Assembly (NCBI GenBank): GCA_963796315.1
Contig: CAWCLH010000020.1
Location: 127,245-191,244, forward strand
Length of the DNA: 64,000 bases
Source: an uncultured Actinomycetota bacterium
GTDB lineage: Bacteria; Actinomycetota; Thermoleophilia; RBG-16-64-13
Direction of reading: 5' to 3'
Shown: positions 11,211-52,004 of the stretch, in pieces
Position numbering within the stretch: position 1 is the stretch's first letter
Layout of the letters: each line of letters opens with the position of its first letter
The notes under the pieces: generated by a model
What the model saw: the letters and a program-made list of their open reading frames with translations, nothing else
Databases searched by the model: none
Told to the model about the DNA's origin: nothing
Made by a program: the position numbers and the translations under genes

Positions 11211-13194
<1,984 letters not shown>

Positions 13195-13251
13195 GCATGA
13201 GCCCCGACAGGCTCTTGGCGGCGGGTCTCGGGAGAGACGCGCCGCGCGGAC

Positions 13252-14165: not shown

Positions 14166-14211
14166 TCATCCGTTCGATGCCGGACACAGCGGTGAGCGGG
14201 TCGTTGGGGGC

Positions 14212-24380: not shown

Positions 24381-24388
24381 CCTAGATC

Positions 24389-24859: not shown

Positions 24860-24886
24860 AGGATCGCCCACCCCGGGGAGGACTCC

Positions 24887-26098: not shown

Positions 26099-26106
26099 GG
26101 TGACCG

Positions 26107-27254: not shown

Positions 27255-27355
27255 GGGGAGAGGTCCGCGGGCCGCCCGGGCTCCTCCATCCTTGAAATTG
27301 CGCGTCTTGGGCTCTAAGTTCAAACGTCGAGACGTACCTGGAGCGGAGGAAGAGC

Positions 27356-29446
27356 TTGCCTGACGGGAGGATGGAGGAGACCGACACGGGGGGCGAGATG
27401 GCGGGCCCGGCGGGCGCGCTGGGCCCCCAGAGGGGCGAGCCCCTCGCCCCGGGCCGCATTCGCCGGATGCTGGCACGCTTCTGGGCGTCGGACACGGCCG
27501 TGATGCTCACCCTGGCCGCGGTGGTCGGCACCGGGGGTGGGTTCGGAGCCGTCGTTTTCATCTGGGTCATCGGTTGGACCACCCGGCTCTTCTTCGACGG
27601 CGGCGCCCACGCCTTCGGCTTCCTGGGCCGCGGCTACGTCATCCTCCTGCCGCTCGTCGGCGGCTTGCTGGTCGGTCCGTTGGTCCACTTCCTCGCGCCC
27701 GAGGCCAAGGGTCACGGCGTGCCGGAGGTGATGCAGGCGATGGCCACCAAGGGGGGCCGCATCCGTCCCGTCGTCATCGCCGTCAAGGCGGTCGGCTCGG
27801 CCATCACCATCGGGTCCGGCGGCTCGGTCGGGCGGGAAGGGCCCATCGTCCAGATCGGCGCTGCGTTCGGTTCGGTGCTGGGCCAGCGTTTCCGCCTCAG
27901 TCAGCCCCGTATCATCGCCTTGATCGGATCAGGCGCGGCCGCGGGGATAGCGGCCACCTTCAACGCGCCCATCGCCGGCGTGATGTTCGCCCTCGAGGTG
28001 TTGCTGGGCGAATACACCGTCCAGGCGTTCAGCACCATGGTCTTCGCTTCGGTCTCGGCCAGCATCGTCAGCCGTTTCTTCCTGGGCAACCATCCGGCCT
28101 TCGCCGTCCCCGCCTACGAGTTGAAGAGTGCCTGGGAGTTGCCTCTGTACGTGGTCCTGGGGCTGGTGGCCGCCCTGGCGGGCGGCGCCTTCGTCCGAAC
28201 GTTGTACTTCGCCGAGGACGCCTTCGACGAGTGGCGCTTCCCCCCCTATCTCAAGCCGGCAGTGGGCGGTCTGGCGTTGGGCGTGGTGGGCTACTTCGTG
28301 CCGCGGGTGTTCGGCACCGGCTTTCCGGTGATCGCGGAGGCCCTGAATGGTTCGATCGCCCTCAAGATCCTGCTGGTGCTGATCGTCGCCAAGATACTCG
28401 CCACCTCGCTCACCCTGGGTTCGGGGGCCTCCGGCGGGGTGTTCGCTCCGGCACTCTTCCTGGGAGCGGTGGTGGGCGGAGCCTACGGGACCGTCGCGCA
28501 CCACCTGTTCCCCAGCGTGGTGGCCAACAGCGGCGCCTACGCGACGGTCGGGATGGCCGCGGTCTTCGCCGCCGCCGCCCGGGCTCCCATCACCGCCATC
28601 ATCATCCTGTTCGAAATGACCCTGGACTACAACATCATGGTGCCCCTGATGTTCGCCACCGTCGTCGCCACCGTGCTGGCCGGCTGGGCCGAGCCGGAGA
28701 GCATCTACACCCTCAAGCTCGTGCGCAAGGGCATCGATTTCCGCGGCCGTCACCGGATGACGCAGATGGAGCGGATACCGGTTGGCGAGATCATGACGCC
28801 GATGAACCGCATGGGAGCCGTCCGGCCGGATACCACTCTGACCGAACTGGCCGACCTCTTCGAGACGACCAAGCATCACGGGGTGCCGGTACTCGATGAC
28901 GAGGGCCGCTTGACAGGGATCGTGACCATCGAGGACCTCGAACGCGCTCTGGCGAACGGCTCCGAGGACAGCGTTGTCAGCGACATCTACAAGACCAATC
29001 TCATGGTCGCGTTCCCGGATGAGTCGCTGGAGGAGGTCCTTAGGCGGGCCGGCGGCCTGAACGTGGGCCGCATCCCCGTCGTCGACCGCGACGATCCCAA
29101 GCAGATCCTGGGCGTCCTGCGCCGGGGGGACATCATCGGGGCTCTGGGCAGCGCCTTCTCGTCCCGGCACGAGCGGGAGCGCCGGGGACGACGGGGGCGG
29201 CTGGAGGGGGTGACCCGCTCCCGGCTGGTCGAGTTCGACATCAGCAAGGACGACGGCGCTGTGGGCAGGACCCTGCGCGAGCTGCAACCCCCGCCCGAGT
29301 CGCTGCTGGTAGCGATCGAGCGCAAGGGCCGGACCCTGGTCCCCCGGGGACACACCCGGCTGCAGGCGGGCGACCACATCGTCGCCCTCGCGCCCATGGA
29401 TGGCGGCGTCCGACTGCGGCGGCGGCTCCGGGAGGGGCCGGCCTGA
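27356..29446 (+). CDS. ClC-type chloride channel/transporter with C-terminal CBS pair and TrkA-C domain
   Basis: GSGGSVGREGP and GGVFAPALFLGA ClC selectivity motifs. C-terminal CBS and TrkA-C-like segments. Confidence 0.85.
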   Translation: MPDGRMEETDTGGEMAGPAGALGPQRGEPLAPGRIRRMLARFWASDTAVMLTLAAVVGTGGGFGAVVFIWVIGWTTRLFFDGGAHAFGFLGRGYVILLPLVGGLLVGPLVHFLAPEAKGHGVPEVMQAMATKGGRIRPVVIAVKAVGSAITIGSGGSVGREGPIVQIGAAFGSVLGQRFRLSQPRIIALIGSGAAAGIAATFNAPIAGVMFALEVLLGEYTVQAFSTMVFASVSASIVSRFFLGNHPAFAVPAYELKSAWELPLYVVLGLVAALAGGAFVRTLYFAEDAFDEWRFPPYLKPAVGGLALGVVGYFVPRVFGTGFPVIAEALNGSIALKILLVLIVAKILATSLTLGSGASGGVFAPALFLGAVVGGAYGTVAHHLFPSVVANSGAYATVGMAAVFAAAARAPITAIIILFEMTLDYNIMVPLMFATVVATVLAGWAEPESIYTLKLVRKGIDFRGRHRMTQMERIPVGEIMTPMNRMGAVRPDTTLTELADLFETTKHHGVPVLDDEGRLTGIVTIEDLERALANGSEDSVVSDIYKTNLMVAFPDESLEEVLRRAGGLNVGRIPVVDRDDPKQILGVLRRGDIIGALGSAFSSRHERERRGRRGRLEGVTRSRLVEFDISKDDGAVGRTLRELQPPPESLLVAIERKGRTLVPRGHTRLQAGDHIVALAPMDGGVRLRRRLREGPA

Positions 29447-31900: not shown

Positions 31901-33075
31901 ATGAACGTACTCCTCATCTTCTCGTTGACTCTGGTGGCGGCGGTCCTCATCTCGGAGGTCGCCGACCGCACCATCCTCTCCACGGCCGTCCTGTTCCTGG
32001 CGGTCGGGTTCCTGACCGGCGGCGTGCTGTTGGATGCCATGCCCGAAGAGCCGGGGGACCCCATCGTCCTCGGGCTTGCCGAACTGGCCCTCTTCGCGGT
32101 GCTGTTCACCGATGGCATGAGGGTCCAACTCCACTACTTCCGAGAGCGATGGAGCCTGCCGACGAGGGCGCTGTTCATCGGTCTGCCTCTCACGCTTGTC
32201 TTGCGGGGCATTGCTGGCTCACGTGCTGGGCCCGTTCACCTGGATCGAAGCACTGCTGGTGGGCGCGGCTCTCAGCCCCACGGACCCGGTCTTCGCCGCC
32301 GCCATCGTGGGGCGGGAGGAGGTGCCCCCCCGCGTGCGGCACCTGCTCAACGTCGAGAGCGGACTGAACGACGGTCTCGCCCTGCCGATCGTGCTCGTTC
32401 TGCTCGACGGCCGCCAGCGGAAGCCGTCCGCACCTGCCGGTCGTCCTGGGAGAGCTGGGTCTGGGTCTCGCGGTCGGGTGCATCGTACCGTTCGCGCTGC
32501 TTTGGTGGCAAAGAGCGACCGTCTGAACGCCACGGAGTCGTACCTGCCGCTCTACGGCTTCGCCATCGGACTGCTGCTGCTCGCCATGACCAAGCCATGA
32601 CGAACGCCAACAGTTTCCTGGCCGCCTTCGTCGGCGGCATCGTCATCAACGCCTACAGTCCGCGCGCGCGCCACGCCTTCCACCGGTTCGGCGACCTGGT
32701 GGCCGAACTTTTCAAGCTGGCGTCGGTGCTGGTGTTCGGCTCGTTGCTGGCGACCGATGTCATCGGTCACGGCGTCCCCTGGCAGGCCTACGTCTTCGCC
32801 GGATCCGCGGTGCTCCTGGTGCGACCGATCGCCCTCGTGCTTCCCCTGCTGGGAACACACCTGACCCGGCGCGAATGGGTGACCGTTGCCTGGTTCGGTC
32901 CCAAGGGCTTCGCCTCCCTGATCTTCGCGCTGCTCATCATCACCAGCGGGGCGCCCCACAGCCGTGAGATGTTCCACTTCATCGCCCTCACGATCGGACT
33001 ATCCATCCTGCTGCACTCCTCGACGGACGTCCCCATCGCACGCATGTTCCGTGACCCGGACGACAGGCCGACCAG
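31901..33075 (+). CDS. NhaP-type Na+(K+)/H+ antiporter (CPA1 family); several frameshifts, 3' end uncertain
   Basis: MNVLLIFSLTLVAAVLISEVADRTILSTAVLFLAVGFLTGG...LLVGAALSPTDPVFAAAIVG...LNVESGLNDGLALPIVLVLL...AWFGPKGFASLIFAL is a CPA1 signature. The frame stays open into nuoA. Confidence 0.7.
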
Positions 33076-33205
33076 GCCGACAGTCGGCTTTCGGATGGCC
33101 GCTCATCCTCGTCCGGGCAGACCCCTGAGCGGGGCCGTCGCGGGCGTACGCATCGCTTGGCCTCGGGTAACGGCCGACAAGTGCGGTGGAACCGAGGGGA
33201 GGACG

Positions 33206-33532
33206 GTGCAGGGACAGATCGTCGGCGACTACGCCCTCGTCGGGCTCCTGGCTCTGGTGGGTACGGGCCTTTCCCTGTTGCTGGCGGCGGCCTACCGGCC
33301 GCCGGTCCGCGTAGAGCGGGTGCCGGCCGCCTGGGCCTCCTACCGCTTCGGCTTCCCCGTCTACGCCCTGATCTTCCTCTCCTTCGACATGGAGATGATC
33401 TTCATGTACCCGTGGGCGGTGGTGTTCGCGGACCTCGGGCTGGAGGCCTTCCTGGACATGTTGGTCTTCATCGCCATCCTCTCGGCCGGCATCGCCTACG
33501 CCTGGAAGATGGGGGGCCTGCGGTGGGAGTGA
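33206..33532 (+). CDS. nuoA: Complex I subunit A homolog (NuoA/ND3)
   Basis: GTG after GGAGGAC. ..YRFGFPVYALIFLSFDMEMIFMYPWAVVFADLG..LDMLVFIAILSAGIAYAWKMGGLRWE matches the NuoA core (FDxExxFxxPWA...YxWKxGxLxW). Confidence 0.65.
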   Translation: MQGQIVGDYALVGLLALVGTGLSLLLAAAYRPPVRVERVPAAWASYRFGFPVYALIFLSFDMEMIFMYPWAVVFADLGLEAFLDMLVFIAILSAGIAYAWKMGGLRWE

Positions 33533-33648
33533 GGCGGCGGACTCGAACGCGGCGAGGCCCACGGTGCAGACCGTAGCGAGGGCCGCCGCCGTACTGGCGG
33601 CGCTGGAGTTGGTGCGCGACGCTGACCTGGCTTCTGGAGCCGAGGGCG

Positions 33649-34471
33649 GTGCGCTCGGCGCCGGAAGCGGGGCCGGCCGCGCCGGTCGGCGTGCGCGGCC
33701 CGGTGACAGCGGCGGCGGGACCGGACCGCTGGCTCCGTCCGGCCGGGCCGGTGATGGCCCTGCTGGGGGTGGTGTTCGCCGCGGTCGTGATTCCCTTGGA
33801 CGATGGCCTGGTGGGGCGCGACCTGGGCATCGGGCTCTTCTACTTCATCGTCGTGGTGGATTTCGTGGTCTTGGGGCTCTCGTTGGCCGGCTGGGGGGCG
33901 AACACCCGCGCGTCGGTGGAGGTGTACTACCGGGCGACTGCTCAGCTCGTGGCCTACGTGGTACCCCTGGGCCTCGCCTACATCGGCGCCGTCATGATGG
34001 CCCGCTCGCTCTCGACCGTCGCGGTCGTCCGGGCACAGCAGGACCTGTGGTTCGTGGTGCTGCAGCCGCTCGGTTTCGTGCTCTACCTGGTGACCGGATT
34101 GATGCAGGCCTATCGGGCGCCCTTCATCGAGCCGTTCTCCGCCTCCATCGCTCACGGCGTGTATGGGTCGTCCGCCGGCTGGCAGGCGGTGCTCTGGCGC
34201 GTGGCGCTCTCCGGCACGCTCCTGGTCGTGGCGGCGATGGGAGCCGTGCTCTTCCTGGGCGGCTGGCAGGGCCCCGTCCTGCCCGGTCCCGCCTGGATGG
34301 CCCTCAAGACCTTCGCCCTGCTGGGCTTCATGGTCTGGGCGGGCAGCCCACGTCACACCGCTGCCGGTGGCGCGCATGCTCGAGCTGGCCTGGAAGGTCC
34401 TGATCCCGGTCGGGCTGGCCAACGTCCTCCTGGTCGGCGGGTTGATCCTGCTGGGCGTCGGTCCCGGGTAG
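33649..34471 (+). CDS. nuoH: Complex I subunit H homolog (NuoH/ND1), recognisable from TM2 onward; 5' boundary unclear; frameshift near 34340
   Basis: ..PDRWLRPAGPVMALLGVVFAAVVIPLDDG...FYFIVVVDFVVLGLSLAGWGANTRAS...APFIEPFSASIAHGVYGSSAGW...AWMALKTFALLGFMVWA(frameshift)AHVTPLPVARMLELAWKVLIPVGLANVLL. The conserved N-terminal quinone-loop motifs were not found in any frame upstream. Confidence 0.7.
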
Positions 34472-34481
34472 GGGGCGAGGG

Positions 34482-35497
34482 ATGGGCGCCGTCATGGAGT
34501 GGATCGCCTTCGCCCTGCTCGCCTTCATCGCCCTGGCCGGGGCGCTGGGCATGGCCACCACCATGAGCATGTTCCGCAGCGGCATCTTCCTCATGGCCTC
34601 CTTCATCGGGGTGGCCGGTCTCTTCGTGCTGCTCTCGGCCGACCTGCTCGGCCTGCTCCAGGTGATGATGTACATCGGCGGCATGCTGGTCATGATCCTC
34701 TTCATGGTCCTGTTCAGTCACGACCCGGGCGGCAGCATGATGGCCGGGATGGAAGGGCTTTCGCCGGTAGAACGCGCCTTCAGCCTGGGTCTGACGCCCA
34801 ACGAGGAGGAGTCCGATCAGCCCGCTGACGGTGGTCCCATGGAGGGGATGACAGCCGGGGCGCACGAAAGCCACGAGGGCATGGGCGACAGGCCCGGCGG
34901 CCACGAGGGTCACGGCGGCATGCGGTGGGCACGAGGGCCACGAGGGCATGGAGGGCATGGCGGGCGGCGGGCACGAAGGCCACGGTGGTGGCCACGATGG
35001 CGGGCGGCGGGCACGAGGGCGACGACGGCATGGAAGGCATGGCGGGCGGTGAACAGGAGGGCCACGGCGGCATGTCCATGGCGGACATGAGCATGACCAC
35101 GCCGGTGAAGCGCTGGGCGGCCCTGCTCGGCGGCGTGCTGGGCGTCGGCCTGATGCTGTTGATCCTGCTGCGACCGGCCTGGCCGGTCGCAGCTCAGGTT
35201 CCCGACCCCGACTCGGCCCGCCGGGTGGGCGAGCTTCTCATGGGCAAGTACATGATGGCCTTCGAGGGGGCCGGCCTGCTCATACTGATCGGTATCTTCG
35301 GCGCCGTGCTCCTGGCCCGGCCGGGTTCGTACCCCGACCCGGCGTCGCGCGCCGTGCCGGTGACGAGCGACGCGCCTCCGCCCCCCATCGCCGAGGACCG
35401 CCCGCCGTCGGCCGACGCGTTTGTGCCTTCCGCAGCGGGCGTCGAGACCGAGGTGCTGGCCTCGCACGGGGACCGGCCGGGCGAGGACGGACGTTGA
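34482..35497 (+). CDS. nuoJ: Complex I subunit J homolog (NuoJ/ND6) carrying a His/Met/Gly/Glu-rich repeat insertion; frameshifts inside the repeat
   Basis: MGAVMEWIAFALLAFIALAGALGMATTMSMFRSGIFLMASFIGVAGLFVLLSADLLGLLQVMMYIGGMLVMILFMVLF.. (NuoJ core), then the HEGH/MEGM repeat, then a TM helix ..WAALLGGVLGVGLMLLILL. Confidence 0.7.
34840..35100 (+). repeat. Imperfect tandem repeat (about 45-nt units) encoding (M)AGGGHEG(H/D)..GMEGMAGG His/Met-rich motifs inside nuoJ
   Basis: Repeated nucleotide blocks ggcatgga(g/a)ggcatggcgggcgg and gggcacga(a/g)ggc(c/g)ac. Every reading frame of the region carries HEGH/GMEGM-type motifs. Confidence 0.7.
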
Positions 35498-35805
35498 GCG
35501 TCCCCATCGAGGCCTACCTGATCGTATCCGCCGGCCTGTTCGGCATAGGGGTCTACGCCATCGTGGCCCAGCGCTCCGCCGTCATGATCCTCATGGGGAT
35601 CGAAGTGCTGCTCAACGCCATCGGGCTCAATCTCGTCACCTTCTGGCGCTTCGTCGCCCCCGGCGACTACTCGGCCCAGATCTTCACCATCATCATCGTG
35701 ACCGTCGGGGCGGTGGAGATGGGGATCGGGCTGGGCATCATGATGCTCCTCTTCCGCAACCGGCGGACCGTGCAGGTGGACCAGTACCAGGATCTGCGGG
35801 GCTAG
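35494..35805 (+). CDS. nuoK: Complex I subunit K (NuoK/ND4L)
   Basis: MSVPIEAYLIVSAGLFGIGVYAIVAQRSAVMILMGIEVLLNAIGLNLVTF...IIVTVGAVEMGIGLGIMMLLFRNRRTVQVDQYQDLRG. Confidence 0.85.
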   Translation: MSVPIEAYLIVSAGLFGIGVYAIVAQRSAVMILMGIEVLLNAIGLNLVTFWRFVAPGDYSAQIFTIIIVTVGAVEMGIGLGIMMLLFRNRRTVQVDQYQDLRG

Positions 35806-35814
35806 GGGGGCCGC

Positions 35815-37760
35815 GTGAGCCTGATCTTGCTCCTCGTCCCTCTGCTGCCCCTCGGCGTCGGTCTCGTGCTGACGGCGACCGCGCTTCGGGGCGGGGGTCA
35901 CCCCGGATCCGGGGCCGGTTGGGCGACGGCCGCCGCCACCGCCCTCTCCCTGGCGGGCGTGCTGGTCCTCACCGGCAGCGAGACCGCGATCGGCATGAAG
36001 TGGCTGGTGAGCGGGAGCCGCTCGCTGCCCGTGGGCCTCGAGCTGACCGGGCTGACGTGGTTCGCCTCGTTGCTGGTGTCCGCAGTCTCACTGGCGGTGG
36101 TGGTGTACGCGATCGGGTACTGCAAGGGCCCGGGCGGACCCGTTTCTTCGCGGGGCTCTCGTTCTTCATCGGGGCCATGCTCACCTTGGTGCTGGCCGAT
36201 TCCCTGGTGCTTCTCTTCGCCGCCTGGGAGGCCGTGGGTCTCGCCTCCTTCCTCCTGATCGGCTTCCACTTCCAGGAACCTGCTGCGCGGCGGGCGGCGC
36301 TCCTCGCCTTCGTCGTGACGCGGTTCGGCGACCTGGGTCTGTTGCTCGGCTGGCTGTTCCTCGTGGACCGGACCGGGACGGCGGCCATCGCCGAGGTCCT
36401 CGGCCAGGCGCAGACGGGGGCGCTGACCGGAGCGGAGCTGACGCTGGTGACACTGCTCCTCTTCGGGGCGGTGGTGGGCAAGAGCGCCCAACTCCCTCTG
36501 ACCGCCTGGCTTCCCGCCGCGATGGCCGGGCCCACGCCCGTCTCGGCCCTCATCCACTCGGCCACGATGGTCGCGGCCGGGGTCTTCCTGGTACTGCGGC
36601 TCTTTCCTCTGTTCCAGGCGGCGCCCGCCACGCTGAGCGTGCTGCTCTGGGTGGGTCTGGGGACCGCCCTCCTGGCGGCGGTGATCGCCACGGTCCAGAT
36701 GGATCTGAAGCGGGTGCTGGCCTGGTCGACGGCCTCCCAGCTGGGAGAGATGGTCCTGGCTCTGGGAGTCGCCGCTCCGCTCGGTGCCGCCTTCCACCTG
36801 GCGACGCAGGCCAGCTTCAAAGCGGGGTTGTTCCTGGCCGCCGGCGCGGTGGACCACGGTGCGGGCAGCCGCGACCTGCGCCACTTGGGAGGCCTTTGGC
36901 GGCGCATGCCGGTGACCTCGGCCGCCTTGGCCGTCTCGGGCCTGGCCTTGGCCGGGATCCCCCCGTTCGCCGGTTTCTGGAGTGAGGAACTCCTGCTGGC
37001 GGCGGCGGTCCGTCATGGCCCCTGGCTGGGAGCGGTCGTCCTGGGCCTGATAGGCCTCGCCGGGCTCTACATGGGACGGGCCGCCGCCGCCGTCCTCTTC
37101 CGCTGGCCGGGGGCGCCCGAGCCGGAGGCCACCGATCCCGGGAGGCCGATGCTCGCCGGCCTGGCCGGCCTGGCCATCGCGGCGGTGGGCGTGGGGGTCC
37201 TCCTGCAGGCCTGGGGGACCGAGGTCCTCCCCTACCCGGAGGAGCCCGGGGCCGGGGTGGCTTGGCGCTGGGCGCCGTGGCCATGGCGCTGGCCGGTCTT
37301 GCCGCCGGGGGTCTGTTGGTCCGCCGCCGGGGGCCGGTCGCGCCGCTGGCCCCCTTCGCACGGCCCCTCCAGGGGGCGGTCGAAGGGTGCGGTCGTCGGA
37401 CCCGGTCGGCTGGTCCTGGCGCTGGCCGGCGCGGTCGACCGCGTAGAGCTCCTCTTGGACGGCGCCGCCGGCGCCGCCGGTCGCTGGGCGCGTCACGCGG
37501 CCGGCGTGGTCGACCGACTCGAGGGTGGCCTGGACCGGGGTGCCCTCGCCGCCGGCGGCGGGGGTCTGGCCGCGGCTCGGCTGGTCGACCAAGTCGAGGA
37601 CGGTGCGTTCGCTCCGGGGGGCGACGGGTTGGGTCGGACGCTGTCCCGGGGGGGAGGCCTTCTCCGCGGGGCCGAGAGCGGGCGAGTCTATCTCTACACC
37701 TTGGCTCTCTTCCTCTGGCTGGGAGCGGCTGTCCTACTGAGCTACGTCTGGTGGCGGTGA
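35815..37760 (+). CDS. nuoL: Complex I subunit L homolog (NuoL/ND5); frameshift near 36150
   Basis: ..AWEAVGLASFLLIGFHFQEPAARRAALLAFVVTRFGDLGLLLGWLFL...KSAQLPLTAWLPAAMAGPTPVSALIHSATMVAAGVFLV...WSTASQLGEMVLALGV.. is the NuoL/antiporter-like signature. Confidence 0.8.
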
Positions 37761-37764
37761 CACG

Positions 37765-39233
37765 ATGCTGAGCGCGGTGATCTTCCTCCCCTTGGTCGGC
37801 GGTCTGGTGGTGCTGGCGTTACCCGCCGGCCGGCCGGACTGGGCCCGGCGCGTCGCCCTGGCGACCAGTCTGGTGGAGTTGGTGCTGGTTGCCATCGTCA
37901 TCGCCGGGTTCGACAGGGGGCGGAGTGGGCTGCAGTGGCGGATGGACACCGCCTGGATCCCGTCGCTGGGGGCCCGCTACGACGTGGCCGTCGACGGTAT
38001 CTCGTTGCCTCTGGTGGCCCTGACGGCGCTGCTCGCGGCCGTGGTCATGGTCTACGTCCTGCCCCAGCGCGACCGCGTGCGCGGGCACGCCTTCCTCTTC
38101 CTGTTGATGACCACCGGTCTGATCGGCGTCTTCGTCTCCCGCGACCTGCTGCTCTTCTACCTCTTCTTCGAGGTCGGCCTGGTGCCCATGTACTTCATCG
38201 TAGGTGTCTGGGGGCACGAGCGCCGGCGTTACGCGGCACTGAAGTTCTTCCTCTACACCCGGGCGGGTAGCCTGGCGATGCTCCTCTCCTTCCTCGGGAC
38301 TCTACCTGCATACCTCCCCCCGGACGTTCTCCCTGGACGCCATGGCCGCCCATCCTCCCCTCACCGGGGCGGGCGCCGGTCTCGCCCTGCTCGGACTGGT
38401 CATCGGGTTCGGGGTGAAGCTGCCCATCGTTCCCCTGCACAACTGGCTGCCCGACGCCCACGTGGAGGCACCCACGGAGGGCAGCGTCATGCTCGCCGGG
38501 GTCCAGCTGAAGATGGGGGCCTACGGCCTGGTGGCCGTGATGCTCCGGGTACTCCCCGAGACGACACGGCGCTACGGCTGGGTGCCTCGTGGCCTTGGCG
38601 CTTCTCACCTTGGTCTACGGGGCGCTGGCCGCGCTCGCGCAGCGCGACCTGAAACGGTTGGTGGCGTACACCTCCGTCAACCACATGGGTTACGTCCTGC
38701 TCGCCGTGGGTGCCTGGGCCCTCCTCGAAGATCCCGGTGCGCGCCAGTTGGCGCTGAACGGCGCCGTCGTCCAGATGGTCAGCCACGGGCTCTTGACCGG
38801 CGGGTTGTTCTTTCTGGTCGGCATGCTGCAGGACCGGGCCCACACTCGGGATATGGGCCGCTTCAGCGGACTGCAGGCGCAGGTCCCCGTGTACAGCTGG
38901 ATGCTGGCACTGTTCGCCTTCGGCTCTCTGGGCCTGCCCGGGCTCTCGGGGTTCATCGCCGAGTTCCAGGTGCTGGGCGGCACGATCGGCGTGGGCGTCT
39001 GGGCCGCGGCGGTGGCGGTGCTGGGATTGATCGTCATCACCGGGCTCTTCGTGCGCATGGTGGTGGACGTCGTGATGGGATCCCCGGCCGCGCCCGTCAC
39101 GCTGGCCGACCTCCGGCCCCGCGAGCTGACCGCGCTCGTGCCGCTGGCCGGCTTCTCCCTGCTCATCGGCCTGCTCCCCGTGACCCTCGTGGCTGTCGTC
39201 GACGCCGCGACCGCAGCGCTGGCCGCGCTCTGA
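37765..39233 (+). CDS. nuoM: Complex I subunit M (NuoM/ND4); two frameshifts
   Basis: [19 protein letters not shown]...[46 protein letters not shown]...[41 protein letters not shown]...[18 protein letters not shown]. Confidence 0.8.
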
Positions 39234-39242
39234 CGGTCCGGG

Positions 39243-40742
39243 GTGGCCTCCACCGGCGCCATGCAGTGCCTCGACCTCTGGGCCGTCCTGCCCGAGTTGG
39301 TCCTGGCCGGCACCGGCTTGGTACTGGTGCCGCTGGCCGGCTTCGTGCACGGGCACGGTCGATGGCGCTACCTTCCCGCCGCCGTCGCCGCCATCGCGCT
39401 CCTGGCAGCCGGCGGACTGACGGTGCGCATGCTCGGTTGGCAGAGCCAGGCGGTGTTCTGCGATACCTACGCGTTGGACGGGTTCGCCCACGTCTTCAAG
39501 CTGCTGCTCGTGACCGGGGCGCTCCTCAGTCTGTTGGTGATCGCGGTCCACTTCCGGGACCGGGACCAGGTGGCCCACGCCCCCATGGCGCTCCTCTTCG
39601 TCACCTTGGGGGGGATCGGCCTTGCCTCTGCCCTCGACCTGGGCTTGATCGTCCTCTTCCTCCAGATGCTCAGCCTGCCGGCCTACCTGCTCATCGCCTT
39701 GGTGCGCAGTGACACGCGCGGCAACGAGGCCACCCTGAAGTACTTCATCTACGGGGCGGCCGCTCTGGCCATCATGGCCTACGGTCTCACCTTCCTCTAC
39801 GGCATGACGGGCAGCCTGGAGCTCCGGACCATCGGACAGGCCTTGGCGGAAGGGGGCGGGGACGCGGTGTGGGTCGCCGTGACGCTGGCCTTCGTCGTCG
39901 TGGGGTTCGGCTTCGAGATGACGCTGGTCCCCTTCCATTTCTGGGCGCCCGATGTCTACGCCGGGGGCACGGCGGCCGTCACCGGTTTCATCTCGGTGGT
40001 GCCCAAGTTGGCTGGGTTCGCCGCCGCGCTCCGGTTCGTCCTCCTGGTGTATCCGGATGGGTTGAGCGGCTGGCCGACGGCGCTGGCGGTACTGTCCGTG
40101 GCCACCATGACCCTGGGCAACCTGGTGGCCCTCCGTCAGACCCGCCTCAAGCGCCTGCTGGCGTACTCGAGCATCGCGCAGGCGGGCTACGTGCTGGTGG
40201 CCGTCGCCGTCAGCTCCCGGGTGCCGAGCGCACTGCCTGCGGTCGGCTACTACCTGGCGGCGTACCTCTTCATGAACCTGGCCGCCTTCGCCGTGGTCGC
40301 TCAACTCGAACGGCAGACAGGAAGCGACCGGATCGATGGGGTGCGGGGGTTGGGCCGGCGGGCACCCCTGCCCGCCGCCGTGCTGGCCCTGGCATTGCTG
40401 TCCTTGGCCGGCATCCCGCCGCTGGCCGGCTTCGCCGGCAAGGTGTTGGTGCTGACGGCCGCCATCGACGGGGGCATGGCCTGGCTGGCGGTCCTCGCGG
40501 CGCTCAACATGGTGATCGCGCTGGCCTACTACCTGGGGGTCATCGCCCAGATGTACCTCAGTCCGCCGCCGGAACCGGCCCTGCCCCACGAGACCGGGTC
40601 CCTGGGTCCCTGGACCGCCCTCCCCACCTCACCGCTTCACTGGCCCGCCTATGCGCTGACCACCGCCGGCACCCTGGTCTTGGGCATCGCGCCCTCGCTC
40701 GGACTTGCCCTGGCGGAGCGCCTGCGCGACCTGGTGACCTGA
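39243..40742 (+). CDS. nuoN: Complex I subunit N (NuoN/ND2)
   Basis: 499-aa intact ORF. ..[45 protein letters not shown]...[33 protein letters not shown]...[18 protein letters not shown]. Confidence 0.85.
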
Positions 40743-40850: not shown

Positions 40851-41561
40851 GTGAACGGCTGGAACGCGTCATCGGATGAGCAGCGTCCTGTGCAGCGAGT
40901 CACCCGGTCCAAGCTCCAAGCGAGGCGGTGGTACGACCGGCTGAGCCCCTGGTACGACCTTCTGGAAGGGCGGTGGGAGCACCCGGCGATCGGGCAGGCG
41001 CTTGACCTGCTGGCGGTGGAGCCCGGGGAGCAGGTGCTGGAGATCGGACCGGGCACGGGTTGGGCGCTCATCCGGATGGCGGAGGAGGTGGGGCCCGCCG
41101 GCAGGGTCTTCGCCGTGGACCTCTCGCCGCGGATGGCCGCCGCCACTCGGGACCGCCTCGCGGACGCGGGCCTGGGTGATCGCGCCCAGGTCAGCGTGGG
41201 GGACGCCTGCCGGCTCCCCTTTCCGGACTCCCGATTCGATGCCGTCTTCATGAGCTTCTTTCTGGAACTCATGGACTCCCCGGATATCCCGGTCGTCCTG
41301 GGCGAATGTCGGCGATGTCTGCGCCCCGGGGGCCGCCTGGCGGTGGCCTCGCTCTCCCGCAAGGGAGGCGGGGTGGCGCGGTGGCTCTACGAGCGGGGGC
41401 ACGATCTGTTCCCCTCCGTGCTCGACTGCAGGCCCATCGACGTGGAGGCTTCCGTCGCGAATGCCGGCTTCCTGGTACGGGAAGCTCGGCTGATCAGCAT
41501 CGAGCGCCTGCCCGTCGAGTTGGTGCTGGCGCGCCGGCCTGGGCACGACCCGAGGAGGTAA
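40851..41561 (+). CDS. Class I SAM-dependent methyltransferase (UbiE/COQ5-like)
   Basis: ..GEQVLEIGPGTGWALIRMAEEVGPAGRVFAVDLSPRM...GDACRLPFPDSRFDAVFMSF (motif I E/DxGxGxG plus post-I acidic residue). Confidence 0.7.
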   Translation: MNGWNASSDEQRPVQRVTRSKLQARRWYDRLSPWYDLLEGRWEHPAIGQALDLLAVEPGEQVLEIGPGTGWALIRMAEEVGPAGRVFAVDLSPRMAAATRDRLADAGLGDRAQVSVGDACRLPFPDSRFDAVFMSFFLELMDSPDIPVVLGECRRCLRPGGRLAVASLSRKGGGVARWLYERGHDLFPSVLDCRPIDVEASVANAGFLVREARLISIERLPVELVLARRPGHDPRR

Positions 41562-41564
41562 GCG

Positions 41565-42329
41565 ATGCCAAGAAGCGAGTCCCTGGAGGCTCAGGCTCCC
41601 GGCCGTCCGGGGGGTCCGGCGGACGTCTGGCTCTCCGCGCGCGGACTCTCCAAGAGCTACGGGCGCGGGCCGGCGGTGGTGAACGCCCTGAGCGACGCCA
41701 CCCTGGACGTCAGGGCAGGCGAACTGATGGTCATCCTGGGGCCGAGCGGCTCCGGCAAGACCACACTGCTCAACCTGCTTGGGGGGCTCGAACGTCCCAC
41801 CGCGGGCTCGCTGCGGGCCTTTGGAGAGCCCTTGAGCGAGTGGGACGAGGACCGTCTCACCCGCTACCGGCTGGAGAAGGTGGGCTTCGTCTTTCAGTTC
41901 TTCAATCTCGTGCCCACTCTGACGGCGCAGGAGAACGTGGCCCTCCTGGCCGAACTGACCGGCCCGGAGCCGGAGGCTCGGGCCGAGGCCGCCCTGGCCG
42001 AGGTGGGTCTGGGAGATCGGCGGGATCACTTCCCCGGGCAGCTCTCGGGCGGCGAGCAGCAACGGGTCGCGATAGCCCGGGGACTGGTCAAAGGGTCTCC
42101 CCTGCTGCTGTGCGACGAGCCCACCGGCTCCTTGGACGTCGAGACCGGCAAGCGGGTGCTGACCGTGCTCCGGGACGTGACGCGGACCGGGGGCCGTAGC
42201 GTGCTCATCGTCACCCATAACGCCGTCATCGCCCGCATGGCCGAGCGGGTGGTGCGCATCCGCGACGGGCGCATCGTGGCCGACGACCTCAACCCGCATC
42301 CGGCAGAACCGGGGGATCTGGACTGGTGA
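41565..42329 (+). CDS. ABC transporter ATP-binding protein (MacB/LolD/FtsE-like)
   Basis: Walker A GPSGSGKTTLLN, ABC signature LSGGEQQRVAIARGL, Walker B LLLCDEPTGSLD. Confidence 0.85.
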   Translation: MPRSESLEAQAPGRPGGPADVWLSARGLSKSYGRGPAVVNALSDATLDVRAGELMVILGPSGSGKTTLLNLLGGLERPTAGSLRAFGEPLSEWDEDRLTRYRLEKVGFVFQFFNLVPTLTAQENVALLAELTGPEPEARAEAALAEVGLGDRRDHFPGQLSGGEQQRVAIARGLVKGSPLLLCDEPTGSLDVETGKRVLTVLRDVTRTGGRSVLIVTHNAVIARMAERVVRIRDGRIVADDLNPHPAEPGDLDW

Positions 42330-44704
42330 AGTACCTGGCGCTCAAGCGAAGGCGGGACGTGAGGCGGCAGCGGCGGCAGTTCCTGGCCGTGCTGGTGACC
42401 GTGGTGCTGGGGGTGATGCTCTTCGCCGCCTCCTACGACGCCTATCGCAACCTGGACGTCTCCTACCGCCGCACCTATGAACGCCTCGCCTTCGCCGACC
42501 TCGTGATCACCGGCGCGCGCCCGGGACTGGCCGCCACGGTCGGCCGTCTGCCCGGAGTGGCCACGGTGTGGGAACGGACGCAGGCCGACGTGCCGCTCCG
42601 CGTAGGCGGCCAGGTCCTGCTGGGCCGGGTGGTGGGGTTGCCCCCGAGCCGCCAGCCGGCGGTGGACCGCGTGGAGGTGACGGCCGGCCGCTACCTGGCG
42701 GCCGGGGGCGGTCGGCAGGCCCTCGTCGAGACGCATATGGCCGACCACTTCCATCTGACCCCAGGCGCCCAGGTCCAGGTGTTCACCCGGACGGGGTGGC
42801 AGCCGTTCGGCGTCCGGGGGGTGGCGGTATCGCCGGAGTACCTCTGGCCGGCCCGGGACAACCAGACCCCGTTCGAGTCGGCGGGTGAATTCGGCGTGCT
42901 GTTCGTGCCGCAGGACCTCGTGGCCCAGACCAGGGCGACCTCCACTGAGGAGCAGGTGCTGGTGCTCTACGCGCCCGGCGCCGACCGAGCGGCCACCGAG
43001 GCCGCCGTCCGCCAGGCCGCGCGGGCGGCCGGGGCGGCCGGGGTGCTGGCCCAAGCCCAGCAGGCCTCCAACAAGACCCTCTCCCTGGACCTCACCGGCT
43101 TCGCCCAGATGTCCGTGCTGTTCCCGCTGATGTTCCTGCTGGCGGCCGGCCTGGCCACCTACCTGCTGCTCACCCGCCTGGTCTACGCCCAGCGCCCGCA
43201 GATCGGTACGCTGCGCGCGAACGGCCTCTCCCGCCGCACCATCGTCTGGCACTACCTCTCCTACGGCCTGGCGGTGGGACTCGTCGGAGCGGTAGTAGGG
43301 GTCGTCTTGGGCGTGGCCGCGGGGTGGGGGATCACCGGTGCCTACACCAAGGAGCTGGGCATCCCGGATACGGTCCGCGCGCTGCGCTGGTTCACCCCCG
43401 TCGCCGGACTGCTCTTCGGGCTGGTGGTGGGAGCGCTCTCCGCCTGGGTGCCCAGCCGGGCGGCGGTGAAGCTGACCCCGGCCGAGGCGCTGCGAGGTCT
43501 GGCCCCCGTGGGTCCCGGCCGCCCGAGTCTGGCCGAGCGCCTGGTGCCGCCGCTGCGCCGTCTACCGGTGCGCTGGCGGATGGTGCTGCGGGGTCTGGGA
43601 CGGAACAAGCGGCGCAGCCTCTCGACGGTGATCGGCATCGTGCTGGCGCTGATGCTGGTCCTCACGTCCTGGGGCATGATCGACACCACCGAGATCCTGC
43701 TCCACCGCCAGTTCGTCCAGGTGGAACATCAGGACGCGGTCCTCGTGCCCGCTTCGACGGCCCCGTCCCTGCTCGGCGCGGTGTCCGCGGTGGACGGGGT
43801 GTCGGCCGCCGAGACGGTGGTCTCGGTGCCGGTGTCGGCGCGGAGCGGCACGGCGTCCTACTCGACCCAGCTCATGGCCTTCGACGCCGGCACGCGGATG
43901 CACGGGTTCGTCGGCACCCCGGACGGGCTCCCCGCGGATGGCGTGCTGGCCGGCTCGTCGCTGGCCGGGGAGCTCCACGTCACGACGGGGTCGATGCTGA
44001 CCCTCCAGCTGGCCGGGGTCTCGCGGGCGGTCCGGCTCCCCCTGCGCGGCTTCGTCGACGAGCCGCTGGGCACGCTCGTCTACGCGAGCAAGGCCGCGCT
44101 CGCCCAAGGCCTGACGGCGGCAGGGGCGGGGGACCTCTCCACCTTGGTCTCCAGGCCGGGCGACGCCGTGGTCATGGTCCGCCTGGCGGCGGGCAGCGAT
44201 CGCGCGCGCGCCCTCGCCTCGCTGCGTCAGCTTCCCGGCGTGCTCACCGTGAGCGACAGCCGAGCGCTCTACGACCAGATCCGGCAGTACATGGGGTTCT
44301 TCTACCTGTTCGTGGGGGTCATGCTGGTGTTCGGCGGCGCCATGGCCATGGCGCTCATCTTCAACACGGTCTCGGTGAACCTGGCGGAGCGGGCCGGTGA
44401 GTTGGCCAGTATGCGGGCCAACGGCATGTCCCGCCGGACGATGGCCGGGCTGGTCACGGTCGAGAACCTGGGGTTGACCGCCGTCGGCATCCTGCCCGGT
44501 CTTCTGGTGGGTTGGGCCGCGGCGGCCTGGTTCATGTCCACCTACACCAGCGACATGCTGCACTTCGGTCTGCAGTTCCGGACCCGCACGCTCGTGCTGG
44601 CGGCCGTAGCCATGTTCGTGGTGACCGGGCTCTCGCTCTGGCCCAACCTGCGCTCCGTGGGCAAGGTCGACGTGGCCCAGGTCGTCCGCGAGCGCTCGCA
44701 GTGA
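42326..44704 (+). CDS. ABC transporter permease with two FtsX-like domains (MacB-type permease)
   Basis: 792-aa intact ORF overlapping the ATPase stop. Repeated 4-TM FtsX-type segments separated by large periplasmic domains. Confidence 0.8.
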   Translation: MKYLALKRRRDVRRQRRQFLAVLVTVVLGVMLFAASYDAYRNLDVSYRRTYERLAFADLVITGARPGLAATVGRLPGVATVWERTQADVPLRVGGQVLLGRVVGLPPSRQPAVDRVEVTAGRYLAAGGGRQALVETHMADHFHLTPGAQVQVFTRTGWQPFGVRGVAVSPEYLWPARDNQTPFESAGEFGVLFVPQDLVAQTRATSTEEQVLVLYAPGADRAATEAAVRQAARAAGAAGVLAQAQQASNKTLSLDLTGFAQMSVLFPLMFLLAAGLATYLLLTRLVYAQRPQIGTLRANGLSRRTIVWHYLSYGLAVGLVGAVVGVVLGVAAGWGITGAYTKELGIPDTVRALRWFTPVAGLLFGLVVGALSAWVPSRAAVKLTPAEALRGLAPVGPGRPSLAERLVPPLRRLPVRWRMVLRGLGRNKRRSLSTVIGIVLALMLVLTSWGMIDTTEILLHRQFVQVEHQDAVLVPASTAPSLLGAVSAVDGVSAAETVVSVPVSARSGTASYSTQLMAFDAGTRMHGFVGTPDGLPADGVLAGSSLAGELHVTTGSMLTLQLAGVSRAVRLPLRGFVDEPLGTLVYASKAALAQGLTAAGAGDLSTLVSRPGDAVVMVRLAAGSDRARALASLRQLPGVLTVSDSRALYDQIRQYMGFFYLFVGVMLVFGGAMAMALIFNTVSVNLAERAGELASMRANGMSRRTMAGLVTVENLGLTAVGILPGLLVGWAAAAWFMSTYTSDMLHFGLQFRTRTLVLAAVAMFVVTGLSLWPNLRSVGKVDVAQVVRERSQ

Positions 44705-44744: not shown

Positions 44745-46613
44745 TTAGGGAAGGGTGAAGACGTAGACCGTGTTATCCGTGGGGATGCCCGAAGCCTGCG
44801 CCGCCCCGGTGGGTGGGCCGCCCCAGCCGTTGGGGAAGCAGATGTACTCCTTGCCGTTGACCGCGTAGACGACCGGGTTCCCGTGCCAACCGGACGTACC
44901 GTAGAAGGTGTAGAGTTCCTTGCCGCTGTCCGAGTCGAGGATCATCATCTTGCGATCGTGTCCTCCGGTGATGACGAGACCGGAGGCGGTGCACGTGATA
45001 CTGCAGATCAGCGGCAACGAGGTGCGGGTCTCCCACTGCACCTTCTTGCCGGTCACGTCCACGGCGGTGACGTGACCGTAGGAGGATTGCGGCTCCGAGA
45101 AACCGCCCCAGTAGAACTCACCGGCTATGAATTGTTGGTCCACCTTGGTGTGCTTGACCGGCATCTCGGTCAGGGGGATGAAGCAGAGCTTACGTTCAGG
45201 GTCGTAGGCTTCGTTCGCCCACTCCTTGCCGCCCATGTTGCCCGGCGCCACCACGGTGCCATCCTTGGTCGGAATCAGCCGAGGGTCGGCCTTGGGCACC
45301 CCGTCCGGGCTCACGGTACCCCAGTTGACAAGATGCGCCACCTTGAGCGCGTATACCGGCTTACCGTTCGTCCGATCGAGCGTATAGAAGTAGCCGTTCT
45401 TGGCCGAGAACATCACCACTTTGCGCTGTTGCCCGTCGATGCTCAGGTCGTCGATGATCGGGGAGGTGGTGCAGTCCAGGTCCCAGACGTCATGGGGGAC
45501 GGTCTGGTAGTACCACTTGAGCTTGCCGGTATTCAGGTCGAGGGAGACCACGCAGGTTGCGTAGAGGTTGAGGCCGGCCCGCTGGTCGCCGTTTATGTCG
45601 GGTCCGGCGTTGCCGATCCCGCAGAAGATGGCGTTCATGGCCGGGTCGTACGAGCAGGTCATCCAGTTCGGGCATCCGCCGGTCTTCCAGGAGTCGCCCT
45701 GCCAGGTGTCGTGTCCTGGTTCTCCGGGGCCGGGGATGGTGTACCAGCGCCAGATCTGCTTGCCGGTGTTGATGTCGTAACAGTCGATGAATCCGCGCAC
45801 ACCGTACTCCCCGCCGGAGATGCCCACGATGACCTTGTTGCCGATCACCTGAGGGGCCAGCGTGGCACTGTATCCCAGGCCTACGTCGGCCAACCGCGTA
45901 TCCCAGACCAGTTTGCCCGTGCGGCTGTCGAGGGCGACCAGGCGTGCGTCGAGCGTGGCCATGACCACCTTGCCGGCGCCGATGCCCACCCCCCGATTGG
46001 GAGCGTCGCAGCAGAGGATCGGGTGGGTGCCCTGCAGTTTATGGGCGTAACGCCAGAACGGCTTGCCGGTGACCGCGTCCACCGCAAGGACGTTGTTCCA
46101 CGGTGTGGAGAAGTACATGACGCCGTCGACCACGATGGGTGAGGCCTCGAAGGCGTTGTGCAGGCCGGTATCCAGGGACCAGGCCAACTTGAGGCTGTTC
46201 ACGTTGTCCTTGTTGATCTGGGTGAGGGGGCTGTAGCGCTGGGACTTGTAGGTGCGTCCGTAGAGCAGCCAGTTGTCGCCGTCGGCCTCCGCGTTCATCT
46301 GGCGGGAGGCCAAGTCGCTGGGGAGGGCAGGCGCCTCTTTGATGAGGAAGGAATCGAACCCGAGGGGCGGGAGTTGAGGATTCGCCACCTCCGCCGATTC
46401 CGTTGGCACCGGCGCGCCGCTCTGGGTGGTCGGCGGTAGGCCGATTCGGTAAGCGGCCGCGGGAACTGCCGACCCGGCGGTGGGGGTGCTGCCGGAGGAA
46501 TCGGCGCAACCGCCCGCGAACACGGCGGCGAGAAGGACGATGCCCATGCAGCCGGCGACGGTGCGGGTGCTGCTCTTTGCTATCAGGGGGGATCGCATCG
46601 CTCTCTCCTTCAT
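44745..46613 (-). CDS. PQQ-dependent alcohol (methanol/ethanol) dehydrogenase, quinoprotein 8-bladed propeller; predicted lipoprotein signal; XoxF-like D-L-D motif
   Basis: Signal peptide with ..LAAVFAGGCADS. Adjacent Cys pair HPILCCDAPNRG. W-motif repeats. ..TVPHDVWDLDCTTSP places an Asp two residues after the catalytic Asp, as in lanthanide-dependent XoxF/PedH. 622 aa, intact. Confidence 0.85.
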   Translation of the reverse strand: MKERAMRSPLIAKSSTRTVAGCMGIVLLAAVFAGGCADSSGSTPTAGSAVPAAAYRIGLPPTTQSGAPVPTESAEVANPQLPPLGFDSFLIKEAPALPSDLASRQMNAEADGDNWLLYGRTYKSQRYSPLTQINKDNVNSLKLAWSLDTGLHNAFEASPIVVDGVMYFSTPWNNVLAVDAVTGKPFWRYAHKLQGTHPILCCDAPNRGVGIGAGKVVMATLDARLVALDSRTGKLVWDTRLADVGLGYSATLAPQVIGNKVIVGISGGEYGVRGFIDCYDINTGKQIWRWYTIPGPGEPGHDTWQGDSWKTGGCPNWMTCSYDPAMNAIFCGIGNAGPDINGDQRAGLNLYATCVVSLDLNTGKLKWYYQTVPHDVWDLDCTTSPIIDDLSIDGQQRKVVMFSAKNGYFYTLDRTNGKPVYALKVAHLVNWGTVSPDGVPKADPRLIPTKDGTVVAPGNMGGKEWANEAYDPERKLCFIPLTEMPVKHTKVDQQFIAGEFYWGGFSEPQSSYGHVTAVDVTGKKVQWETRTSLPLICSITCTASGLVITGGHDRKMMILDSDSGKELYTFYGTSGWHGNPVVYAVNGKEYICFPNGWGGPPTGAAQASGIPTDNTVYVFTLP

Positions 46614-46622
46614 CGCGCGGGC

Positions 46623-48134: not shown

Positions 48135-48228
48135 TCGTATGCGTGTGGTCCTCCAAGCCATCGGCCACCTCCGACACCTTGTGAATCATGTCGCACACGA
48201 GGTACCGCCGGCTCTGCTTGAGTAAACG

Positions 48229-50151: not shown

Positions 50152-50307
50152 ACCCTCCCATTGCTCGCCCAAGCTCTGCGCACCGGCGCCGCGATGCCTC
50201 GGATCACATGATCCCCACTGCCGTCAGCATTCAAACCGCAGGCGGAGTGGCCGACTTCCCGCCTTCGCGCTCTCTTGTGCAGCCGCCGCCGCCTGTCACT
50301 TTGGAAG

Positions 50308-51994: not shown

Positions 51995-52004
51995 GAGGGG
52001 GTGT

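Follow-up and report, generated by a model that had tools for sequence, protein, structure and literature searches.

A partial NDH-1 operon consisting of nuoAHJKLMN has been known since 2012 in Salinispora, marine Streptomyces and Kocuria, where it was taken for a "marine adaptation" that was gained by horizontal transfer and pumps protons or sodium, a function that was proposed without experiments (PMC3314556, PMC6676996, PMC6002675, PMC8622039). In the copper locus of Marinobacter atlanticus CP1, a seven-gene cassette named 'NuoADHJKL' is co-expressed with copper genes (PMC8233155). Our search for literature on a demonstrated function of such a cassette, or on metal resistance involving the membrane arm of complex I, turned up only this Marinobacter transcriptome paper. 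In this study we analysed a nuoA-H-J-K-L-M-N cluster in a 64-kb stretch of DNA (contig CAWCLH010000020.1 of an uncultured Actinomycetota bacterium), the whole of which is called the window below. Since the cassette is already in the literature as an arrangement, the gene order is not new, and the cluster in the window, matched by gene content and order, is most simply another member of the partial nuoAHJKLMN group, which is known but uncharacterised. What remains of interest is that this uncharacterised family has coherent features that point to export of a metal, probably copper.

The seven genes lie consecutively on the plus strand at 33206-40742, in a region of about 69% GC, as found by listing of open reading frames (ORFs), Pfam matches and homology-guided reading. 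The nuoA-like gene (33206-33532, 108 aa, intact, Pfam Oxidored_q4) starts with a GTG 5 nt past the sequence GGGGAGG. It is followed by the nuoH-like gene (33564-34471, about 301 aa, NADHdh), which was read by frameshift-aware alignment, and by the nuoJ-like gene (34482-35497, about 338 aa), in which Oxidored_q3 is matched over two ORFs. The nuoK-like gene (35494-35805, 103 aa, Oxidored_q2) is intact. The three genes for antiporter-like subunits, which match Proton_antipo_N/M, come last: nuoL-like (35815-37760, about 650 aa), nuoM-like (37765-39233, about 488 aa) and nuoN-like (39243-40742). The last of these is intact, with 499 aa from a GTG or 493 aa from the ATG at 39261, and its product is 100% identical to database entry P0001. 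Spacing within the cassette ranges from a 4-nt overlap to 31 nt, so the seven genes form one operon-like unit. A preliminary description of this DNA had already reported the seven consecutive membrane-subunit genes with short gaps, the 10-nt spacing between nuoH and nuoJ and the CPA1 antiporter gene directly upstream, and Pfam matches and coordinates bear these out. The gap of about 120 nt that it gave between nuoA and nuoH is actually 31 nt, with the GTG of nuoH at 33564. A promoter and terminator scan of 31.2-41.7 kb found nothing above shuffle expectation; such a scan is uninformative for an organism of such high GC.

The absence of nuoB, nuoC, nuoD and nuoI around the cassette, which had also been noticed at the outset, is confirmed. 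We searched the window by tblastn with 104 ORFs from the nuoA-nuoH and nuoH-nuoJ intervals of canonical operons, which correspond to NuoB/C/D and NuoI, and added a motif scan; homologues of these four proteins gave zero matches across the whole 64 kb. The same four genes are also absent from about 60 related loci.

The nuoH, nuoJ, nuoL and nuoM genes and the upstream NhaP gene are each spread over two or three reading frames, which the preliminary description had not remarked on, with one to four switches apiece, according to a plot of G+C at third codon positions (GC3) and a simple frame hidden Markov model. Frameshift-aware alignment to intact relatives placed the shifts of nuoH, both of them 1-nt insertions, near 33612 and at 34336-34345. 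Those of nuoL lie near 36130, 37270 and 37400 (alignment to three relatives) and the 1-nt indels of nuoM near 38296 and 38585, the second of which is read straight across by the relative L001. Frame changes in nuoJ lie within a repetitive loop, and the NhaP gene runs over three frames with at least 4 indels. With about ten frame breaks in 8.8 kb that hit nuoH, nuoJ, nuoL, nuoM and the NhaP gene, the cluster in this genome could be taken for a decaying pseudogene relic in which the breaks are real mutations. We rejected this reading, which is extremely improbable. Essential genes in the window have an equal or higher density of breaks: groEL is legible only with at least seven frame switches, groES, guaA, tsaD and uvrA are split, and so are tsaB, tldD/pmbA and copD. 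Past every shift, the coding signal, with GC3 above 0.9, and the conservation of the protein are unchanged. In the cassette, no in-frame stops or large deletions were found. An independent contig (L145, 94% DNA identity) runs from the end of nuoA through an intact nuoH into the start of nuoJ, and its nuoH differs from that of the window by exactly two 1-nt gaps, both at the predicted shift sites. Because housekeeping genes are equally broken and the close relative has an intact nuoH, we read the breaks as assembly indels rather than gene decay. The indel load of the window, roughly 1-4 single-base indels per kb, is typical of an unpolished long-read assembly, and gene calls from this genome need frameshift-aware handling. 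The frame-broken groES/groEL, tsaB/tsaD, tldD/pmbA, guaA and uvrA genes are located at 11300-13200 (+) and also at 8650-11010, 14200-17000, 22900-24400 and 62400-64000.

Two earlier claims are affected by these indels. It had been suggested that the N-terminus of NuoH is absent. TM1 (TM, transmembrane helix; VQTVARAAAVLAAL...) can be read in another frame, starting at the GTG at 33564, and the 1-nt insertion near 33612 had hidden it; the motifs of the TM1-TM2 loop are truly absent, and this holds family-wide. It had also been stated that the frame of the antiporter gene reads through into nuoA, which means merely that no stop codon occurs in an indel-ridden stretch. A fusion of NhaP and NuoA was considered and rejected, because nuoA has its own GTG start and ribosome-binding site, there are indels in the region and the two genes are not kept side by side in the family. 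The NhaP gene does not adjoin the cassette in the other family loci examined, so it is a neighbour and not a conserved part of it.

Subunits on the side of the quinone site are remodelled. For residue comparison, nine family members were set against 12-14 canonical homologues drawn from a control set of 79 canonical nuo loci, which came from 80 loci of a NuoN contig scan at 33-45% identity. The NuoA homologue, which in the window is 71% identical to that of Methylobacterium durans, lacks, in all nine family sequences, an 11-residue segment with the YECG of the canonical TM1-2 loop motif (S/T)YECG, and the FDVExxFLxPWA of TM2 in canonical NuoA is replaced by FDMEMIFMYPWA in the family. In NuoH, the TM1-2 loop is about 15 aa shorter (nine family versus twelve canonical sequences). 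Almost all conserved charged residues of NuoH, including those of the quinone cavity and the E-channel, are replaced in the motifs E.K..Q..R.GP..G..Q..AD..K..KED of the TM1-2 loop, AE..R.PFD...AESE...EY of the TM5-6 loop and R..PR.R.D near the C-terminus. The Glu of the "YE" in TM4 has become Val, and other swaps include E to Q, D to L and E to S/H, while NuoH has gained invariant polar residues of its own, such as the Asp in VVVDFVVLG. Alignment to Escherichia coli NuoH begins only at residue 79. An AlphaFold2 model of NuoH from a close relative (P0134) superposes on E. coli NuoH with a TM-score of about 0.8, and its low-confidence stretches are exactly the TM1-2 and TM5-6 loops. NuoA, NuoH and NuoJ all score well under every curated complex I equivalog cut-off of NCBIfam: 66 bits against 145 for NuoA, 137 against 399 for NuoH (128 against 305 with a second model) and 70 against 174 for NuoJ. 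In RefSeq, the homologues on plasmids go only under the names 'complex I subunit 1 family protein' and 'proton-conducting transporter membrane subunit'. The comparison indicates that the elements for docking and coupling of the quinone-reducing module (Q-module), that is, the TM1-2 and TM5-6 loops and E-channel glutamates of NuoH and the YECG loop of NuoA, are degraded.

The distal channel subunits present a different picture. NuoK retains both membrane glutamates (GIEVLLNA and GAVEMGIGL) and passes one NCBIfam NuoK equivalog with 86.2 bits against a cut-off of 57. NuoM keeps the full canonical set of TM5 Glu, TM7 Lys, TM8 Lys and TM12 Glu and passes the NDH_I_M model (498 bits, cut-off 264). 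NuoL retains the lateral-helix region and the terminal TM16 (GRVYLYTLALFLW...), with its TM12 Lys changed to Glu. NuoN scores 341 bits with NDH_I_N, for which the cut-off is 333, and in every family member its TM5 Glu is replaced by Gln and its TM7 Lys by Glu. NuoM, NuoL and NuoK retain their predicted proton-channel machinery, and NuoL its lateral helix. Remodelling of the Q-site side together with retention of the channels supports a module that would no longer bind a quinone-reducing arm and would have working proton channels. The preliminary description had proposed a complex-I-derived ion-translocating module that may work without the quinone-reductase arm. This proposal is supported by the invariant gene order, the lost Q-site, the low NuoA, NuoH and NuoJ scores and the lack of a peripheral-type neighbour, that is, by sequence and not by experiment. 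The cassette very probably encodes a stand-alone membrane module free of the Q-arm.

NuoJ is changed as well. Its Met content is 9.6% compared with 4.0% in canonical NuoJ over shared columns, and 12 Met positions in TM1-3 and around TM4 are invariant in the family. Between TM3 and TM4 there is an insertion, not found in canonical NuoJ, that measures 31-167 aa in 31 non-redundant intact members. In these members the loop is composed of 16% Gly, 11% His, 10% Met and 19% Asp plus Glu, with essentially no Cys. Its flanks are conserved and Met-rich (DPGGxMMAGMD and MDMGxMDMSM(T/V)TP), and repeats such as MDHGDMD, MEHEGMDHG and HEHEHEH occur across the family. In the window the loop (34740-35084, plus strand, about 114 aa) was read across three frames and has GHEG and MEGM repeats with about 11 His and about 13 Met; it belongs to the His-rich class. 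The loop of the close relative L145 reads ...GHEMSAGGHEGHDG. The median number of His in the loop is 15 at loci with a copper context and 4 elsewhere (Mann-Whitney p = 0.0013, phylogeny ignored). By homology with the loop between transmembrane helices 3 and 4 of ND6 in complex I structures, the NuoJ loop presumably lies on the cytoplasmic side, where the peripheral arm used to dock.

The order A-H-J-K-L-M-N is identical, with nothing in between, in about 60 loci or 51 non-redundant groups, which are all the loci long enough to judge. They are eight contexts from genomes or metagenomes, 53 metagenome loci retrieved with a NuoJ profile and two plasmids, of which one is mobilizable and the other conjugative. 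The plasmids are carried by Methylobacterium and Rhodopseudomonas, and the other carriers span Deinococcus, Desulfobacterales, Thermoleophilia-type contigs and a contig labelled Streptomyces. With the intact NuoN of the window as query, a family 58-74% identical was retrieved from Methylobacterium/Methylorubrum, Deinococcus, Desulfobacterales, Calditrichia, Acetobacteraceae and the contig labelled Streptomyces; Thermoleophilia are among the cluster members. The closest relatives are on uncultured contigs of metagenome-assembled genomes that are labelled Chloroflexaceae and Thermoleophilia. The NuoH search gave 397 clusters, nearly all of 297-302 aa. Amino-acid identity across phyla is 50-75%, and the mean column identity of NuoH is 74% over 44 sequences. 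The best Protein Data Bank matches are NuoH, NuoM and NuoN or NdhA, NdhD and NdhB, with Mrp and Mbh subunits far lower, and NCBIfam likewise ranks Nuo well above Fpo and Mrp. The matches indicate that the cassette descends from true complex I and not from Mrp. The possibility that the arrangement is the normal one of a clade, with the peripheral genes at another locus, did not hold; the cassette is instead an extra and horizontally mobile one, whose proteins differ from canonical Nuo.

Two family loci deserve separate mention. The contig labelled Streptomyces purpurogeneiscleroticus (L089) is 11.4 kb long and opens with an IS21 helper gene. It is the nearest contig with an actinomycete name, with proteins 60-67% identical to those of the window, and its seven proteins are 90-99% identical to those of a Methylobacterium fujisawaense plasmid (L085). 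This likeness reflects either a very recent transfer or contamination of the draft assembly with Methylobacterium DNA. On the chromosome of Methylobacterium durans (L081), where the cassette is intact in other respects, no nuoL is called at 6600-8530, and the C-terminal 50 residues of a long ORF there look out of frame; nuoL of this locus possibly carries a frameshift.

The cassette family is statistically linked to copper genes. All ORFs flanking 34 non-redundant family loci with at least 2 kb of flank were clustered label-free, and the most recurrent clusters were then annotated. They include HMA-domain proteins and Cu-type P1B ATPases of the CopA type (9-10 of the 34 loci), the Cys-rich four-helix-bundle protein Csp (DUF326; 8 loci), CsoR-type repressors (5 + 5 loci), multicopper oxidases and MerR regulators (6 loci each) and DUF305 proteins (4-6 loci). 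At least one of CopA, Csp, CsoR, multicopper oxidase and DUF305 is encoded at 18/34 family loci compared with 0/79 canonical nuo loci (Fisher p = 6.5e-12). The median distance of csp to the cassette is 266 nt. In one locus (L118), copA is divergent from a single-strand series copZ-csoR-rhodanese-nuoAHJKLMN-csp. The Deinococcus copy adjoins genes for CsoR, CopZ, CopA and DUF305, and the copy on the Rhodopseudomonas plasmid adjoins those for DUF305, a two-component system, a CzcA/CusA-type RND protein, DmeF and RcnR/CsoR-type repressors. At L082, the closest relative with context (73% NuoN identity), genes for CopD and a CDF transporter lie directly upstream of nuoA. No conserved neighbour able to act as a peripheral module was found: no flank family occurs in more than 10 of the 34 loci, and none of them is a redox enzyme.

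Taking these findings together, the best explanation of the whole is that a mobile, complex-I-derived cassette encodes a stand-alone, Mrp-like and proton-driven cation exporter, most likely for Cu(I) or a similar soft metal, and that its breaks in this genome are assembly indels. We hold this tentatively, at slightly less than even confidence. In such a mechanism, the complex would be a Mrp-type secondary antiporter powered by the proton-motive force. Protons would flow inward via the antiporter-like channels of NuoL, NuoM and NuoN, and a conformational or electrostatic wave along the conserved polar axis would drive the cation outward. The route of the cation would be the remodelled proximal part, made up of the Gln/Glu pair of NuoN, the glutamates of NuoK, the Met-lined TM1-3 of NuoJ, TM2 of NuoA and NuoH. 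Cu(I) might be gathered or sensed on the cytoplasmic side by the Met/His-rich loop of NuoJ. It is also possible, though less likely than not, that the family is an unrecognised class of metal efflux system, spread by plasmids and under CsoR-type control, that expels Cu(I), perhaps also Ag(I), in a redox-free and proton-driven manner via the NuoJ loop and the Met-lined proximal domain.

Several observations weigh against copper export. The flank statistic uses seed families taken from the family's own flanks and ignores phylogeny and plasmid or island location. No copper gene was found at 16 of the 34 family loci, some of which have more than 13 kb of flank, and the copper genes and the cassette may simply share mobile resistance islands, that is, be hitch-hiking. 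In the window itself, there is no CopA, Csp or CsoR gene beside the cassette, whose neighbours are those for the NhaP antiporter, a methyltransferase and a MacB-type ABC exporter. The placement of the NuoJ loop in the cytoplasm relies on the homology with ND6. Coordination of Cu(I) in the cytoplasm is more often by Cys, of which the loop has essentially none, and several family members carry short, His-poor loops. The E-channel glutamates of NuoH, a possible ion path, have been lost as well. Finally, the cargo and the direction of transport are inferred from sequence features.

The most substantial rival is a Mrp-like Na+(K+)/H+ antiporter for salt or alkaline-pH homeostasis, with the copper genes as mere co-passengers on islands. 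A sodium function is what was proposed for Salinispora, Streptomyces and Kocuria (PMC3314556, PMC6676996, PMC6002675), and it agrees with the homology of the antiporter-like subunits to MrpA/MrpD and with the loci that have no copper neighbour. The window cassette comes right after the NhaP gene, in a block with a second CPA-family (Na_H_Exchanger) antiporter and a ClC channel, and an NhaA gene lies 3.4 kb upstream of the cassette in L090. However, Na+/H+ antiporter genes are not recurrent in the label-free flank clustering and copper genes are. Sodium antiport also does not explain the family-invariant Met substitutions around the carboxylates of NuoA and NuoJ, nor the MDH/HxxM-type loop whose His content tracks the copper context. 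Moreover, the cassette occurs in soil and freshwater taxa and on plasmids next to Co/Ni/Cu/Zn efflux genes. We consider a sodium or potassium antiporter unlikely, though it has to be reckoned with.

The copper association could also reflect a copper or stress role without net export, since it does not fix the direction of transport; the complex could be a metal-gated proton conduit that tunes the membrane potential, or it could take up metal or deliver it to cuproenzymes. CopD, a protein often associated with copper import, is encoded next to the cassette in L082 and 7.5 kb from that of the window, where genes for a cupredoxin-cytochrome c fusion and a haem-copper oxidase are also nearby. CsoR-controlled loci and CopA, CopZ and Csp neighbours are typical of detoxification rather than acquisition, and the conserved proton path through NuoM, NuoL and NuoK argues for coupled transport over a simple leak. 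Such a role seems improbable to us. Still more remote is an alternative membrane arm, a stress isoform docking on the canonical peripheral arm of the host (NuoB/C/D/I with or without NuoE/F/G). Published carrier genomes do hold a complete nuo operon in addition (PMC3314556, PMC8622039), all seven membrane subunits of complex I are represented, the NuoL lateral helix is present and the NuoH fold is retained. Yet the parts for docking and coupling are those most changed: TM1-2 of NuoH has a deletion, its TM5-6 acids and the YECG of NuoA are gone, and NuoJ has an interface insertion of 31-167 aa. After plasmid transfer between phyla, the cassette would have to fit unrelated peripheral arms. In addition, the highly expressed NADH dehydrogenase of M. 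atlanticus is reported to be the Na+-pumping NADH:quinone oxidoreductase (PMC8233155). This last alternative is very improbable.

The surroundings in the window give the copper reading little of their own. The CPA1 (NhaP-type) cation/proton antiporter gene extends from 31901 to about 33100 (+), with Pfam Na_H_Exchanger matches in two frames and an uncertain 3' end. It closes an upstream series of genes for a CPA-type antiporter, a GCS2 ligase, a ClC channel, a flavin monooxygenase, an SRPBCC protein and NhaP. The first three form an ion-homeostasis block at 24860-29446 (+), with the second CPA-family antiporter (412 aa), the GCS2-type glutamate-cysteine ligase and the ClC channel with two CBS domains and TrkA_C. 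Directly downstream of nuoN, at 40851-44704 (+), are genes for an S-adenosylmethionine-dependent methyltransferase and for the ATPase and 792-aa FtsX/MacB_PCD permease of the MacB-type ABC exporter. MacB-type neighbours occur at 5/34 family loci and 3/79 canonical nuo loci. The methyltransferase and SRPBCC genes recur near the L082 cassette. A CopD-family gene (Pfam CopD) at 48232-50223 (-), 7.5 kb downstream of nuoN, is split between two frames; one matches profile positions 2-43 and the other 36-105, and each match exceeds the gathering cut-off. A CopC-like N-terminal domain ahead of CopD was recognised by eye, at a place where Pfam matched nothing. With CopD so far off and the His-rich NuoJ loop as the other local link, the connection to copper in the window is weak, and the copper reading of this copy rests on family membership rather than on local evidence.

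The window holds further genes of note. At 44745-48185 (-), an intact gene for a pyrroloquinoline quinone-dependent alcohol/glucose dehydrogenase (625 aa) lies next to one for a 520-aa fusion of three cytochrome c domains and a plastocyanin/azurin-type cupredoxin, which could be a dedicated electron acceptor chain. A homologue of haem-copper oxidase subunit I (Pfam COX1) and then a cytochrome c-like protein of about 500 aa with CxxCH are encoded at 50534-53465 (+), and there are several frame breaks farther downstream. By eye, genes at 58791-60721 (-), 2-1555 (+) and 3862-5238 (-) resemble those for corrinoid-binding methyltransferases, an aldehyde:ferredoxin oxidoreductase and a hexulose-phosphate synthase fused to an RraA-like domain. 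They hint at one-carbon or methylotrophic metabolism of the source organism.

Among known systems, the membrane arm (P-module) of complex I is homologous to the cassette in all seven subunits and shares with it the lateral helix and TM16 of NuoL, the glutamates of NuoK and the Lys/Glu set of NuoM. The cassette differs in having neither Q- nor N-module; it lacks the nuoB/C/D/I genes, which in canonical operons normally sit between nuoA and nuoH and between nuoH and nuoJ. Its NuoH is without the TM1-2 motifs, the TM4 and TM6 glutamates and the acidic cluster of the TM5-6 loop, its NuoA is without YECG, its NuoJ has the interface insertion, and NuoN and NuoL have changed key residues. For annotation, this means that NuoA, NuoH and NuoJ matches under the equivalog cut-offs should not count as respiratory complex I. 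A naturally isolated membrane arm of this kind, with seven genes, no redox arm and plasmid-borne copies, would be a simple system for studying long-range coupling along antiporter-like subunits.

The best functional analogy is offered by the Mrp (CPA3) antiporters, which work independently of redox reactions, as the proposed exporter would, and like the cassette have complex-I-type antiporter-like subunits together with a NuoK/MrpC-like subunit. In the cassette, NuoA, NuoH and a full NuoJ stand in place of MrpB/E/F/G, and its scores with the Mrp models of NCBIfam are about 130-150 bits against cut-offs of 540-1030. In composition and in the motifs MDH, MxHxxM and MxM, the NuoJ loop is like the Met/His-rich copper-binding segments of CopB-type P1B ATPases, periplasmic CopA/PcoA oxidases and the Met clusters of CusA, proteins that also sit in copper loci. 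There is no homology with the loop; the likeness lies only in composition, and the loop is a putative metal binder.

In conclusion, the closest match to the cassette is the partial nuoAHJKLMN operon that marine actinomycetes carry in addition to a complete nuo operon; the two share the seven genes and their order, and both are without nuoB/C/D/E/F/G/I (Penn & Jensen 2012, PMC3314556; PMC6676996; PMC6002675; PMC8622039). In both, horizontal transfer between Actinobacteria and Proteobacteria is evident and NuoJ is often annotated as hypothetical. These papers give the gene list and pumping of protons or sodium in seawater only; loss of the Q-site, the Met/His-rich NuoJ loop and the copper neighbourhood are not reported there. 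The Marinobacter cassette, judged by its published description, likely belongs to the same family: it has seven co-localised nuo-like membrane genes flanked by copA and genes for copper-binding proteins, and its authors suspected a copper-linked ion pump (PMC8233155). Their naming differs, as NuoD is listed and NuoM/N are said to be absent, and they proposed copper redox energy, not antiport (PMC8233155). If the copper link is true, genes that are now assigned to "marine adaptation" or, in hundreds of genomes, wrongly annotated as subunits of NADH dehydrogenase would have to be re-read, and the cassette would add a new type of energy coupling to bacterial copper resistance, beside the P-type ATPases and the RND pumps.

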